From Escherichia phage SP15, in the sequence record AP019559: a stretch of 64,000 nucleotides of DNA; one strand, 5' to 3'. Under the pieces are notes generated by a model, which was given only the letters and a program-made list of their open reading frames with translations, did not search any database and was not told where the DNA came from. Of this stretch, positions 60,383-63,948 are shown in pieces. Within the stretch, counting starts at the first letter, position 1, and each line of letters starts with the position of its first letter. The translations under genes and the position numbers were made by a program.

Positions 60383-62305
60383 TTAGGTAAGGCGTTGAAT
60401 TATAAGTTTAATATTTGGTAAGCATGCTTTCATGCCAATTATATTGCTCATAGAGGATTCTAACCAAATAGAGATATTATTATTTCCATCATTTCTCATA
60501 TAGTATGTTAGAGTATAGTAACCCGTTTGACCTACGGATCCTGGCAACCCAGATACCCAGTATGGAGTTGGAGTATACCCAGCAGCCTGTAATTTACAAG
60601 CATTTACTACAGTACCTTTAATAGTAAAAAATGGTACATATTCTCCTGCAGGTAGGGACAATATTTGGTGAAGTTTTTTATCAATAGTATTGCCACCCAT
60701 TCTAAACCTACTATCGCCATATTCAGCGCCTTTAGATAGCATTTCCGTAGGATTAAAGCAGCCAATACCTCCTGCAGACAACCATGTGTCATCTAGGAAC
60801 TCCATAGTACATACAATTGCACCATTTCTACTACTATTAAGATCTAGTCCCACGGTACCAACATGCACGGAACCATTACCCTGAAATACTATGTTACCAG
60901 ATAGTACAGTACTTCCGCTACCACCTAGAAGTCTTAAAGGTAGAAGATTTTCACTCCAAACGTCCCCATAATTACTCCCTATTTTTGGAGGATTACTAGA
61001 AACATACCAAGATGCTGAAGGTAAAAAGTTATAAATACTAACTACATTAGTATTTAAACCACCAACGTTACCACCCTTAATACTTGGTGCGTTATTGCTT
61101 TCTGTGGTTGGTAGTCCAAATGTTGCTATGCCAGAGATCCCAGTAGAGGGGCCACCCATACTCAAGTTACACCCAACATCACGAAAATCAGCTCTGCTCC
61201 CTACATTAAAGTTTTTCTCAACAAAGTTAATAAACTTCCACGACGTATTATTAACGTTAACCCCTTTAATAATAAATTCTCTTGGACTAAGTTTAATATC
61301 ATTGCCAGTAAATAGCCCACTATCGATACTGTATCCTGAGCCATTGTATACTAGATTGGTAACATACCAAGTAATTTTAGATGGATAAATACCGAGGTGC
61401 TCACTATATATACCTATGGGCCCATTAGCAGCATCATTCGGATCACCCATACTTTCCCAATACGCATAGTTAGTGGGATCAGCACGTGCGAAACCTACAG
61501 AGTACTTAGGAGCCGAGGGATTGCTAGGATTAGACATAAAGTTAAGAGCCCCTGAACTCGACGCCCCATGTACAGCTCCAGCAGTGGTGTAGTTGGGCCC
61601 TTCCATACCATAAAGAACTCTATTACAAGACCTACCACGAACATATATGGCGTTAAATCCAAAGTTTCTAGCTCCGGGATGCCTAACGTAGTCGCTAGGG
61701 ATAGTTAGAGTTCCTGAATCCGGCACTACATATCCTGAACCATCCCAGGCAGACTTATAAAGAGCGGCACCTCCTAAATACATTGCACTAGATGCAAACC
61801 CTCTACGCCCACTAAAGGCGCCAAACATATGCTGACATCCAGTACCGTCTCTTAATTTCTGGGGGATAGTTCCACTAGTACCACTATTAAAATAGCCCAC
61901 ATCAAGAGATAGATCAGCACTAGCTGTTATTTGTGTTTTTAAACCACCTTGAGACATGACCTGCGGATTTATAATTCCATACGCTTTAGCCCCTACCCCC
62001 ATAGACATGCCAGATAACATATGTCTAGAGCCATCAGAAAACTCAATTTCTGTTAGCACAACTCTATTGGGGTCATTATTATGTAACTGGGTAATTCTGC
62101 TAGGCATATCAGACCAGTAGTAATCTCCAGCACCTTGATCTAGCCTCAACCCTGTGGAGTGAGTTTCTGTTATGATAACATGGGGCATATCTGAATGGAA
62201 TATGGTCTGAGAGTCAGGATTAATATGTTGATTAGTATCTCCGCCACTACCCCTTCGCAGTGAGAGTATAGATTTGTTATTTAGCTTACCAGCGAAAAAA
62301 CTCAT
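60383..62305 (-). CDS. oad: Receptor-binding tail protein pb5-like
   Basis: 640 aa, divergently adjacent to llp-like lipoprotein gene as in T5. Confidence 0.65.
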
Positions 62306-62324
62306 AAGTTCTCCAAAAATTTAG

Positions 62325-62353
62325 TTGCTTATACTGCCATAATTCTGTATAAT
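62325..62353 (+). promoter_or_regulatory. T5-type early promoter (TTGCTT, 17 nt, TATAAT) driving llp
   Basis: Consensus hexamers 30 nt upstream of llp RBS AGAGGAG. Confidence 0.6.
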
Positions 62354-62384
62354 AGTATTATAAATTAAATAGAGGAGAATGTAA

Positions 62385-62618
62385 ATGAAAAAATTATTTT
62401 TAGCTCTGGCAGTGGTACTTCTTTCGGCTTGCTCTACTTTTGGGCCTAAAGATATTAAATGTGAGGCCTACTATGTACAAGATCATGTGAAATATAAGGC
62501 TAATGTTTTTGATAGAAAAGGGGATATGTTCCTGGTGGCACCAATCATGGCCTATGGATCTTTCTGGGCTCCAGTAAGCTACTTTACCGAGGGGAATACA
62601 TGTGAAGGAGTTTTCTAA
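62385..62618 (+). CDS. llp: Lytic conversion lipoprotein precursor (Llp-like)
   Basis: 77 aa; signal peptide with lipobox LLSAC; divergent from pb5-like gene. Confidence 0.75.
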   Translation: MKKLFLALAVVLLSACSTFGPKDIKCEAYYVQDHVKYKANVFDRKGDMFLVAPIMAYGSFWAPVSYFTEGNTCEGVF

Positions 62619-62778
62619 GTAAAAACCACCCCAGTAATCATCACCTAAGATGAACCTAGTGCAGAATTAGTTCAGGATGCCACACAAGACACTATGGAAG
62701 GTGTAATGAGAATAGTTACACTAACCACTGCAACTATTAGAATACTTCAAATACCACACTTATAGGAGCATGAAAGAT

Positions 62779-62907
62779 ATGTCAAACAAAAGAAAGAGTA
62801 GACGCGGAGAAGTGTATGAGAGTTGGATAAATAGTTTTGGGTTCGGAACTATCCTATTCTTTATTTTCGTAGGTTTTTGGTTAGCAGCTATGGCGGGGTG
62901 GATTTAA
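62779..62907 (+). CDS. Tiny membrane protein (42 aa, one TM helix)
   Basis: RBS AGGAG; basic N-terminus then hydrophobic helix; below ORF-track length cutoff. Confidence 0.4.
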   Translation: MSNKRKSRRGEVYESWINSFGFGTILFFIFVGFWLAAMAGWI

Positions 62908-63014
62908 TGGAATGGGTAATTATTGCGTTGCTAGGGATTGTGATTATTGGGCAATGTATTTTAGATAATCACTTAGCTAGAATTGAAACTTTACTAACGG
63001 AGAAACGTAAATGA
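62907..63014 (+). CDS. Tiny membrane protein (35 aa, one TM helix)
   Basis: Start overlaps previous stop (TAATG); N-terminal hydrophobic helix. Confidence 0.35.
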   Translation: MEWVIIALLGIVIIGQCILDNHLARIETLLTEKRK

Positions 63015-63205
63015 TGGAAGTAGTAGCTACACTAATAGTAATACTAGTCTGGGCAACTTTCATTGTTTCTTATAACGCGTATGTTCGCCTAAAAACTCTA
63101 GAAGCTCAAGTAAAACAACAACAATTTGCTCTAGAAAAATTAGTAGAACTCCAACGTTGTGATAGTACCCGTATTCTGCAAATTGAGGGGGAATTAGATG
63201 TTTAG
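63011..63205 (+). CDS. Small membrane protein (64 aa), N-terminal TM helix plus coiled-coil tail
   Basis: Start overlaps previous stop (ATGA). Confidence 0.45.
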   Translation: MMEVVATLIVILVWATFIVSYNAYVRLKTLEAQVKQQQFALEKLVELQRCDSTRILQIEGELDV

Positions 63206-63422
63206 TATTATAATTGCTTTTATTATCGGGGTACTTGCGGGAATTTTCGGAATGACTGCGGCTATTAACAAGCATCGTAAGTATACTGCGGAAGTATCGC
63301 GGGAGATTGCGGAAAGGGAGCGGAAGTTTGACGAGAAACGTGCGGAGTTCGAACGAGAGTGGTCGGATGGTTCTCGGGCGTCGCGGAAGAGATTTCGGGC
63401 TAAGGTGAGTGATGAAGAATAA
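63198..63422 (+). CDS. Small membrane protein (74 aa), N-terminal TM helix plus charged tail
   Basis: Overlaps previous ORF end; hydrophobic N-terminus, Arg/Glu-rich C-terminus. Confidence 0.45.
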   Translation: MFSIIIAFIIGVLAGIFGMTAAINKHRKYTAEVSREIAERERKFDEKRAEFEREWSDGSRASRKRFRAKVSDEE

Positions 63423-63948
63423 CTTAAGTATACAGGACATACAAGAAGCATTTGCTTATGATCCCGAAACCGGGGTTATTACCTGGAAAAGTGGTAGTCG
63501 TAAAGGTAAAGAAGCTGGTACTTTAAATAGAGGATATAGGCAGCTTAAGTACAAAGGGTTTAGAGCTTATGCACATCAAATAGCTTTTGTTATTATGGAA
63601 AATAGATGGCCCGAGGAATGCGTTGACCATATTGACAGGAATAAACTAAATAATAGATGGTCAAATCTGCGAGAAGCTACAATTACGGAAAATAATCATA
63701 ACGGTAGAACTTCAAAAACATCCTCGGGCTATCTAAATGTTACGTGGCATAAAGGACTCCAGAAATGGATGGTAAGATTACACGACAAACATGGACTTAT
63801 AAAGGGTACTACTGAGTATTTTTCCTACGATAGATTGGAAGATGCAGTAAATTATGCGAATTTACTAAGAAAGAAATTTCATGGCAGCTTTGCAGTACAA
63901 GAGGCATTCAAAGGGAACATACCAGATGTTGTTCAGTTAAACAGTTAA
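63412..63948 (+). CDS. HNH homing endonuclease with AP2-like domain
   Basis: VDHIDRNKLNNRWSNLREAT and SGYLNVTWH; paralog of 21942-22475. Confidence 0.75.
   Translation: MKNNLSIQDIQEAFAYDPETGVITWKSGSRKGKEAGTLNRGYRQLKYKGFRAYAHQIAFVIMENRWPEECVDHIDRNKLNNRWSNLREATITENNHNGRTSKTSSGYLNVTWHKGLQKWMVRLHDKHGLIKGTTEYFSYDRLEDAVNYANLLRKKFHGSFAVQEAFKGNIPDVVQLNS

Follow-up and report, generated by a model that had tools for sequence, protein, structure and literature searches.

Do the four very short open reading frames that follow the lytic-conversion gene llp in Escherichia phage SP15 encode real proteins, and what might such proteins do in the infected cell? The sequence analysed (the window) is a stretch of 64,000 nucleotides from record AP019559. 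The four overlapping frames, called A to D here, lie on its plus strand at positions 62779 to 63422, 3' of a T5-type llp. A sequence-only reading had described them as a chain of consecutive tiny ORFs of 42, 35, 64 and 74 amino acids, and both the coordinates and the lengths proved exact.

Identity of the locus

The neighbouring gene was named correctly as llp. Located upstream at 62385 to 62618 on the plus strand, it encodes a 77-aa precursor of the FhuA-blocking lytic-conversion lipoprotein that is 96% identical to T5 Llp, carries the lipobox LSAC and matches PHROG 1119, the Cor superinfection exclusion protein (E = 1.7e-18). Llp is a known blocker of FhuA, non-essential and expressed early.

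Each of the four frames has a counterpart in T5. A (62779 to 62907) corresponds to orf1, or T5.159 (95% amino acid identity; PHROG 8596, E = 3.9e-32), B (62907 to 63014) to orf2, or T5.160 (97%; PHROG 6369, E = 2.8e-26), C (63011 to 63205) to orf3, or T5.161 (83%; PHROG 5851, E = 1.9e-34), and D (63198 to 63422) to orf4, or T5.162 (93%; PHROG 6447 'membrane protein', E = 1.4e-43), all on the plus strand and each with a PHROG match that spans the whole protein. Over llp to orf4 the window and T5 share 92.7% nucleotide identity. Judged by sequence, A to D are T5 orf1 to orf4 of GenBank X75922, that is T5.159 to T5.162 of AY543070 / NC_005859, and not new genes, an identity that the sequence-only reading had missed. 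As the result of a genome scan, the locus is a re-discovery of annotated hypothetical genes; the annotation of orf1 to orf4 dates from 1994 (X75922), and T5.159 to T5.162 already carry the note 'contains single transmembrane domain' (AY543070).

The gene order in the window is pb5 on the minus strand followed by llp and A to D on the plus strand, and the cassette is divergent from the receptor-binding protein (RBP) gene, as in T5. The T5 genes have the same order, the same overlaps (-1/-4/-8 nt) and the same place between llp and the right terminal repeat, which in T5 comes directly after D; the window ends short of this repeat. The two phages differ in the length of D, which is 81 aa in T5 and 74 aa in the window because an HNH homing endonuclease gene (63412 to 63948, plus strand, outside the cassette; PHROG 99, E = 1.9e-52) has been inserted at its 3' end. 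Homology of D to T5 ends at codon 67, and Salmonella phage vB_Sen_I1 has the same HNH insertion after D and the same D tail, RAKVSDEE. From these alignments, the insertion has evidently rewritten the C-terminus of D. The window also has G59 in C at a position where relatives have R.

Coding capacity, coupling and transcription

An obvious concern with ORFs of this size is that the frames might be open by chance, or that only some of them are translated; two of the four are shorter than 45 aa, and no proteomic evidence for A to D was found. Lack of conservation of the reading frames in related phages had been named as a possible refutation of the chain. On the contrary, frames, starts, Shine-Dalgarno (SD) sites and overlaps are conserved at 69% to 96% nucleotide identity across about 440 genomes, and the A to D arrangement is kept in 24 related loci. 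The ratio dN/dS is well below 1 in all four ORFs, both over their whole length (A 0.11, B 0.17, C 0.39, D 0.34) and with the overlap zones left out (A 0.10, B 0.13, C 0.42, D 0.26), and substitutions pile up at third codon positions in every ORF (p = 2.6e-5 to 0.011). Antisense ORFs across the locus show no conservation in relatives. The arrangement is far beyond chance, and the comparative data effectively refute open frames of accidental origin, an explanation we now consider scarcely credible. On the strength of these substitution patterns, A to D are genuine protein-coding genes under purifying selection.

The overlapping stop/start junctions had been reported for A/B and B/C, and both stand: A and B overlap by 1 nt (TAATG) and B and C by 4 nt (ATGA). 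The C/D junction, undescribed earlier, is an 8-nt overlap (ATGTTTAG). Shine-Dalgarno-like motifs lie 8 to 13 nt 5' of the starts, namely AGGAG for A, GGGGTGG for B, GGAGA for C and GAGGGGG for D. The start chosen for A (ATG 62779) is correct: this ATG and its GGAG are kept in relatives, which have ACG, ATT, ATA or AGG in place of the in-frame ATG at 62770, 5' of the A start. Overlaps of -1, -4 (or -1) and -8 nt are kept, together with the SD motifs, across Tequintavirus and Epseptimavirus. Where C is deleted, B abuts D through TAATG and the overlap is re-created, as it also is where a paralogue of B has been inserted. Since the conserved SD sites lie inside the preceding gene and the stop/start overlaps are kept, the four genes appear to be set up for translational coupling and synthesis in a fixed ratio, in line with the original proposal of coupled membrane-protein genes beside llp.

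The llp promoter can be read from the sequence at 62325 to 62353 on the plus strand, with a -35 element TTGCTT (62325 to 62330), a 17-nt spacer and a -10 element TATAAT (62348 to 62353). It precedes the llp ATG by 32 to 60 nt, an offset identical to that in the X75922 annotation (82 to 110, with the ATG at 142), and was missed by a consensus scan because TTGCTT fits only three of the six positions of TTGACA. The scan did return a candidate internal sigma-70 promoter 5' of A (62715 to 62743, plus strand; GTTACA-17-TAGAAT, a 9/12 match). Conservation across phages with unrelated upstream modules begins at its -10-like TAnAnT and a downstream ATTTY-AAATACC. Most relatives carry ATATT at this candidate promoter, where the window reads ATACT; T5 early promoters are reported to have ATATT as their discriminator motif (PMC7472727). 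The interval between llp and A contained no terminator-like site in our scan and no stable hairpin (spacer folding z = -0.03), and an Rfam scan returned nothing credible. The cassette is probably transcribed early, as these elements suggest, by read-through from the llp promoter (proposed because no terminator separates llp from A), from the conserved early-type promoter about 45 nt 5' of A, or from both.

Predicted topology and distribution among relatives

All four ORFs had been credited with an N-terminal hydrophobic helix. This is the case for B, C and D (residues ~1 to 23), whereas in A the hydrophobic segment is C-terminal (residues 19 to 42) and follows a basic N-terminal tail with five K/R residues; A also has an invariant GEVYxSW motif. 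The expected membrane character itself is supported by hydropathy, with one hydrophobic segment of transmembrane (TM) length per protein (17 to 24 uncharged residues; KD hydropathy 2.2 to 2.8 over 17 residues). The TM helix of B is followed by a short amphipathic basic tail and that of C by a helical, coiled-coil-like tail. In D, the TM helix contains an invariant GxxxGxxG (G11, G15, G18) and is followed by an E/R/K-rich helix with a conserved EREWxDGSRxSRxRF motif, the last 7 to 14 residues being variable. AF2 predicts both C (residues 2 to 62, pLDDT 89) and D (residues 2 to 73, pLDDT 77) as one long helix, so that a fold search would be meaningless.

None of the four proteins has a lipobox or a signal peptide, and in B, C and D the N-flanks of the TM segment are acidic or neutral and the C-flanks basic. 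A would be a tail-anchored N-in peptide of the inner membrane, and B, C and D would be bitopic N-out/C-in inner-membrane proteins, with the consequence that all soluble parts would face the cytoplasm. Insertion and topology are predicted here from hydropathy and the positive-inside rule only, and for short bitopic proteins this rule does not settle the orientation. Lambda Rz, for example, is N-in, yet basic residues follow its TM helix. The unusually conserved TM helices, with their small-residue motifs of the GxxxG type, may pack together or with a host membrane protein.

Among sequenced phages, A was found in 446 records and D in 442, close to the number that carry a T5-type small terminase at 80% identity or more (~440 records). 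C is present in 194 records and often absent, as in IrmaTschudi-type phages, and a 51-aa paralogue of B is inserted between A and B in two related loci (L015 and L019). The divergent relatives KKP_3711 and Eos retain A as the only member of the cassette. KKP_3711 has lost B, C and D, and about 100 nt separate its RBP gene from the A ORF, which is unannotated; Eos has no annotated llp, and the first gene divergent from its RBP gene is A, at a distance of 124 nt. At the same locus, Eos and Klebsiella phage Roth39 hold non-homologous genes whose products combine an N-terminal TM helix with a coiled coil. The FhuA-type pb5 of the window occurs in only 29 records; llp types swap upstream of the cassette, which is kept whatever receptor-binding/llp module lies there. 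The best reading of this distribution is that A to D are a conserved operon of non-essential accessory genes, present in essentially all Markadamsvirinae (T5-like phages). They are among the most widely conserved accessory genes of T5, a classical model phage, with ~440 sequenced relatives, and the comparison adds a near-universal core of A and D, dispensable or duplicated C and B paralogue (B'), independence from the receptor module, conserved motifs predicted to face the cytoplasm, and analogues at this locus in more distant Demerecviridae.

Outside the T5-like phages, a homologous-protein search returned no relatives of A and D, and an exhaustive search of 1.84 billion representatives with C returned T5-like phage proteins only. 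A 302-aa match at 25% identity in the homology searches was set aside as probably a hydrophobic artefact. Pfam, NCBIfam and PADLOC scans of A to D gave nothing above threshold, a PDB profile search with D gave coiled-coil noise only (E >= 0.1), and no homologue of known function emerged from the family, homology and structure searches. In profile comparisons, B against C gave a probability of 64% (hhalign), which makes the two candidate paralogues at most, and the 74-aa Roth39 protein against C gave 44%; no relationship was seen between C and D, or between Eos65 and C or D. We found no paper that names T5.159 to T5.162 in its main text and no functional study of them, and the papers on BF23, phiR2-01, T5 two-step injection and the FhuA-Llp structure are silent on these ORFs. 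The phages covered by HIDEN-SEQ do not include T5-like ones.

Possible roles in the infected cell

Knock-down of T5.159 to T5.162, and of lpp, by CRISPRi-ART was scored 'Not Fit', with no measurable fitness effect (PMC11879866, Source Data Fig. 6a). This call is weak because many T5 structural genes scored likewise, and the screen is a one-host laboratory assay in which an exclusion function would escape detection. Accessory status is also seen in natural losses, of C in many phages and of B to D in KKP_3711.

We put at roughly 45% the probability that A to D are non-essential, translationally coupled inner-membrane proteins that act as a second arm of the lytic-conversion module, one that does not depend on the receptor. 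The idea derives from the traits that A to D have in common with Llp and Cor: a common locus and orientation, small envelope proteins and non-essentiality. While Llp blocks the outer-membrane receptor, these proteins would protect the infected cell's cytoplasmic membrane or change its properties, and they might, for instance, stop superinfecting phages from delivering DNA or forming pores. Superinfection exclusion or membrane remodelling is plausible for such proteins, and the more specific role as an arm of lytic conversion is speculative. The case for exclusion was argued only from the position beside llp and the membrane location.

A to D are not themselves lipoproteins of the Cor/Llp type, an assignment we rejected on the missing lipobox and the lack of co-variation with the RBP or receptor type. 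Unlike Llp, they are predicted to sit in the inner membrane with cytoplasmic tails and have no signal peptide and no sequence similarity to it; and whereas llp co-varies with the RBP, the A to D cassette (~445 records) is kept regardless of the type of receptor. Functionally, a second conversion arm would most resemble T4 Imm, P22 SieA and HK97 gp15, small inner-membrane proteins that are dispensable in the laboratory and block DNA entry by other phages. These are single proteins and not three to five single-helix peptides from a coupled chain, and PHROG, Pfam and NCBIfam scans revealed no homology of this type in A to D.

A variant that we regard as possible, if doubtful, gives A a separate status. 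Here A would be a core tail-anchored peptide that joins exchangeable partners, each an N-out TM helix plus a cytoplasmic helix, in a receptor-independent inner-membrane complex, universal among T5-like phages, serving a new kind of exclusion, pore protection or inhibition of a host machine. The partners meant are B, B', C and D, and the non-homologous analogues in Eos and the Klebsiella phages.

An equally tentative alternative holds that A to D do not exclude phages and are host-takeover effectors that inhibit or re-program an inner-membrane machine of the host. The targets considered were the divisome or elongasome, LPS regulation via LapA/LapB-FtsH, the TonB-ExbBD energiser and a membrane-bound defence system. 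PHROG 6447, to which D belongs, has the category 'moron, auxiliary metabolic gene and host takeover'; the independence of the cassette from the receptor module would fit a target that all hosts share; and the conservation of TM helices and C-terminal motifs suggests a specific partner. D also matches LapA_dom (PF06305) in 16 of 17 family members, aligning with its second TM helix and juxtamembrane helix, but the best match (E = 1.8e-4, 21.8 bits) is under the 28-bit gathering threshold, and the 17 members are more than 68% identical, so that their matches are not independent. Weaker still are the matches of D to ZapG/YhcB-like proteins (PF06295; 15.9 bits, under the 33.5-bit gathering threshold) and to FtsL, and of C to DivIC. 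All of these family matches fall below curated cut-offs and are of a generic 'TM helix plus charged helix' type, and searches of PADLOC and the PDB produced no relative. Membership of D in the LapA domain family was rejected on the Pfam threshold. ZapG has the same overall outline as D, a TM helix plus a cytoplasmic helix, and the likeness of D to LapA and ZapG is probably compositional or architectural. If the cassette is an inner-membrane exclusion or host-control module, it would add a second layer to textbook Llp 'lytic conversion' and would be relevant to designing cocktails of T5-like phages.

Lysis timing, also suggested from the sequence, is disfavoured. On this reading A to D would be additional proteins of the holin/antiholin, pinholin or i-spanin type that adjust when lysis occurs; like many holins and antiholins they are small single-TM proteins, and a lipoprotein gene, llp, lies upstream. 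As in Rz/Rz1, the genes are small and overlapping, and C and the Eos and Roth39 analogues have the i-spanin outline of an N-terminal TM helix plus a coiled-coil-like helix. However, the match of C to the Rz-like spanins of PHROG 214 is very weak (E = 0.14), and i-spanins are N-in/C-out type II membrane proteins with a periplasmic coiled coil, an orientation opposite to the one that the flank charges of B, C and D would predict. An o-spanin partner is absent from the chain, where no protein has a lipobox; the nearest lipoprotein is Llp, 160 nt upstream, and it has a demonstrated different function in blocking FhuA. No endolysin is encoded nearby, and the PHROG, Pfam and NCBIfam scans gave no holin or antiholin match. 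The holin, the endolysin and the spanin pair of T5-like phages are encoded in a cassette of their own (PMC6658699, PMC4342426), which in T5 is distant (lys, T5.040, at about 20 kb versus ~111 kb for T5.159 to T5.162), and lysis specialists annotated A to D as hypothetical in phage Sepoy. The early type of the putative promoter upstream of A and the 'Not Fit' knock-downs also speak against lysis. Canonical lysis roles are unlikely, and we consider lysis regulation of any of these kinds improbable.

Slightly less probable again is a role as membrane tethers, in which phage DNA, or complexes for replication or packaging, would be held at the inner membrane by the cytoplasm-facing helices. In favour are the length and charge of the predicted cytoplasmic helices and their conserved terminal motifs, and in T5 the A1 protein is membrane-associated and FST DNA has been argued to be likely membrane-bound (bioRxiv 10.1101/866236). 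Yet a fitness effect would be expected of tethers, and the knock-downs were 'Not Fit'; C, or B to D, is dispensable in natural relatives; and the Pfam and NCBIfam scans found no DNA-binding or known interaction domain.

A part in injection of the phage's own DNA, the remaining suggestion of the sequence-only reading, is disfavoured by position. A to D occupy the right-hand extreme of the unique region and border the right terminal repeat, a position that places them on the DNA of the second-step transfer. T5 DNA is transferred left end first (Davison preprint, bioRxiv 10.1101/866236), and the cassette should therefore be among the last unique genes to enter the cell.

Locus layout and identity of the genes

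The phage is T5-like (Tequintavirus), and the window closes on the right end of its unique region. There, the gene for the receptor-binding tail protein pb5/oad (60383-62305, minus strand) is followed by llp (62385-62618, plus strand), the T5-type gene for the FhuA-blocking lipoprotein, and by four short plus-strand ORFs, jointly the cassette: A at 62779-62907 (42 aa), B at 62907-63014 (35 aa), C at 63011-63205 (64 aa) and D at 63198-63422 (74 aa). At its end, D overlaps with an HNH homing endonuclease gene (63412-63948). The A/B junction is TAATG, the B/C junction is ATGA and the C/D junction, ATGTTTAG, is an 8-nt overlap. A Shine-Dalgarno (SD)-like motif lies 8 to 13 nt 5' of all four starts and, for B, C and D, within the preceding gene. 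The sequence-only reading, which had proposed a chain of four coupled genes for tiny membrane proteins, is confirmed with two small corrections. Its coordinates and lengths were correct on re-reading of the window, as was its start for A, the alternative in-frame ATG at 62770 not being kept in relatives.

A to D are already known as annotated hypothetical genes. T5 matches 62300-63450 by megablast at 92.7% identity, and the llp/oad/dmp fragment in GenBank (X75922) already lists the four as orf1 to orf4. The complete T5 genome has them as T5.159 to T5.162, each noted 'contains single transmembrane domain', with lpp/llp on one side and, 42 nt past T5.162, the start of the right terminal repeat on the other; RefSeq names T5.162 'membrane protein'. 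A, B, C and D are full-length matches to PHROG 8596, 6369, 5851 and 6447, respectively (E 1e-26 to 1e-43). It is practically certain that they are real genes, identical to T5 orf1-4.

Selection on the reading frames

Conservation of the frames in related phages was examined in 24 related loci of the genera Tequintavirus and Epseptimavirus, together with more distant relatives. Start codons, frames and overlaps were kept throughout (A/B -1, B/C -4 or -1, C/D -8). Pairwise Nei-Gojobori dN/dS was 0.11 for A, 0.17 for B, 0.39 for C and 0.34 for D, with third codon positions more variable. Recomputed without the terminal codons that double as the next gene's SD, and without D's variable tail, the values were 0.10, 0.13, 0.42 and 0.26, with position-bias p values of 2.6e-5 to 0.011. 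This dual use was found at 62889-62907, where A's last codons (AMAGWI) hold B's SD (GGGGTGG), and at 63186-63205, where C's last codons (ExELDV) hold D's SD, and it explains part of the extreme C-terminal conservation in A and C. In the window, C carries G59 where every relative has R, and D's SD is changed from GAGAGGG to GAGGGGG.

A few relatives have in-frame stops (C of locus L015, D of locus L012), and D of locus L017 has an internal deletion of 17 aa; such cases reflect either gene decay or errors in sequencing. Two antisense ORFs over C/D (63060-63440 and 63194-63451, minus strand, 126 and 85 aa) are fragmented in relatives, as in locus L019, and were rejected as artefacts, mere by-products of coding on the opposite strand.

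Probable membrane proteins and their predicted topology

Every one of the four proteins contains a single hydrophobic stretch of 17 to 24 uncharged residues (Kyte-Doolittle hydropathy 2.2 to 2.8), and we regard A to D as very probably membrane proteins. The helix had been read as N-terminal in every product, which holds for B, C and D, where it stands at the start, its N-flank being acidic or neutral and K/R residues following directly. In A the order is reversed: a basic tail with 5 K/R residues comes first, then the invariant motif GEVYxSW and last the helix, at the C terminus (residues 19-42). By the positive-inside rule, the somewhat favored topology is N-in and tail-anchored for A and N-out/C-in for B, C and D, which would place every soluble part in the cytoplasm. 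AlphaFold2 models C (pLDDT 89) and D (pLDDT 77) each as one long helix. In D, GxxxGxxG in the transmembrane (TM) helix and the motif EREWxDGSRxSRxRF are both invariant, and the protein also has an E/R/K-rich helix; the C terminus of C is an invariant RIxQxExELDV, in part doubling as D's SD. The degree of TM-helix conservation suggests specific helix-helix contacts.

The homology search proposed earlier matched A to D to T5 orf1-4 and their own PHROGs, with no relative of known function. Scans of the four against Pfam, NCBIfam and PADLOC gave no match above threshold, and a PDB profile search with D gave no relative. Only T5-like phage proteins were matched by A and D in a collection of 5.8 billion protein clusters and by C in an exhaustive search of 1.84 billion representatives. 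D gave a consistent match to LapA_dom, seen in 16 of the 17 closely related members scanned, that stayed sub-threshold (21.8 bits, cut-off 28). B and C are possibly paralogues at a distance (hhalign probability 64%); C and D are unrelated to each other.

Distribution, expression and possible role

Across 50,697 phage records, the cassette was found in 444 by blastn (69-96% identity), and tblastn found A in 446, D in 442 and C in 194 (E <= 1e-3). The T5-type small terminase (>=80% identity) occurs in about 440, so that A and D are near-universal in Markadamsvirinae. The llp/RBP (receptor-binding protein) modules upstream vary between loci while the cassette is retained, and cross-locus conservation starts about 50 nt upstream of A; the cassette is therefore independent of receptor specificity. 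The FhuA-type pb5 and llp (60383-62743) form a swappable module, this pb5 being found by megablast in only 29 records versus about 445 for the cassette genes, with the recombination boundary falling on a conserved promoter-like element about 50 nt before A.

A T5-style canonical promoter precedes llp (TTGCTT-17-TATAAT, 62325-62353), at an offset equal to that of the promoter annotated in X75922, and neither a terminator-like site nor a stable hairpin was found between llp and A. The second, promoter-like element (GTTACA-17-TAGAAT, 62715-62743) coincides with the start of cross-module conservation. Immediately past its -10, most relatives have ATATT, a motif common to T5 early promoters (Klimuk et al., PMC7472727); the window copy is ATACT. 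From these features we infer early expression of the cassette, through llp co-transcription, the internal promoter or both. In a transcriptome-wide CRISPRi-ART screen of T5, 'Not Fit' was the score for guides against each of T5.159,.160,.161,.162 and lpp (PMC11879866, Source Data Fig. 6a). This is compatible with accessory status, but the screen is insensitive, since many T5 structural genes received that score too.

We read A to D as a conserved accessory operon whose products, small proteins of the inner membrane, are probably synthesized in fixed proportions. Of the roles suggested earlier, canonical lysis is unlikely, since T5-like phages carry holin, endolysin and spanin genes in a cassette of their own, A to D have no lipobox and their predicted orientation is opposite to that of an i-spanin. 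The phage is also unlikely to use them for the entry of its own DNA, as they are part of the second-step-transfer DNA, at the right end of the unique region. The most economical hypothesis, to which we assign a probability of 0.25 to 0.3, is exclusion, argued from adjacency to llp, likely early expression, location in the membrane, dispensability and receptor-type independence. On this view the cassette would add to lytic conversion an inner-membrane arm that does not depend on the receptor and serves exclusion or protects the membrane. In the main rival reading, A to D would act on a conserved host membrane machine.

Natural variants also occur at the locus. IrmaTschudi-type Epseptimaviruses (in IrmaTschudi itself, locus L024, 2471-2954) are without C, and the B stop there overlaps the D start. 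Loci L019 (2242-2397) and L015 (same position) have an additional 51-aa B paralogue between A and B, with the MEWVII start and RIETLLxExK end of B and a helical segment inserted; TAATG overlaps join it to its neighbours in a five-gene chain. In Enterobacter phage KKP_3711 (2992-3108) A alone is left, as an unannotated 38-aa homologue about 100 nt from the RBP gene. In Eos (1626-2324) A is directly divergent from the RBP gene and is followed by two unrelated proteins with an N-terminal TM helix plus coiled coil. Klebsiella phage Roth39 (165-854) encodes two proteins of this type at the corresponding place, again divergently from the RBP gene, with an A homologue absent from the annotation. The genes for these proteins in both phages are non-homologous to those of the cassette.

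Some GenBank records that overlap these small ORFs bear labels such as 'tail assembly protein', 'tail fiber protein' and 'lysozyme' (e.g., OSYSP, GEC_vB_N3, SP01, EC100), and short D homologues are named 'H-N-H endonuclease' (SP-3) or 'tail fiber protein' (PS3-1); our analysis gave no support for tail, lysozyme or endonuclease labels, taken at record level, on A to D. The insertion point of the HNH gene is precisely the 3' end of D (63397-63948 region). Homology of D to T5 ends at codon 67, with a new tail, RAKVSDEE, in the window and in Salmonella phage vB_Sen_I1. Across relatives, the final 7 to 14 residues of D exist in at least four versions that vary with the downstream insertion: the tails RAKVSDEE and RMSESGDKPVDRRSS adjoin downstream HNH genes, and T5's own tail adjoins the terminal repeat directly.
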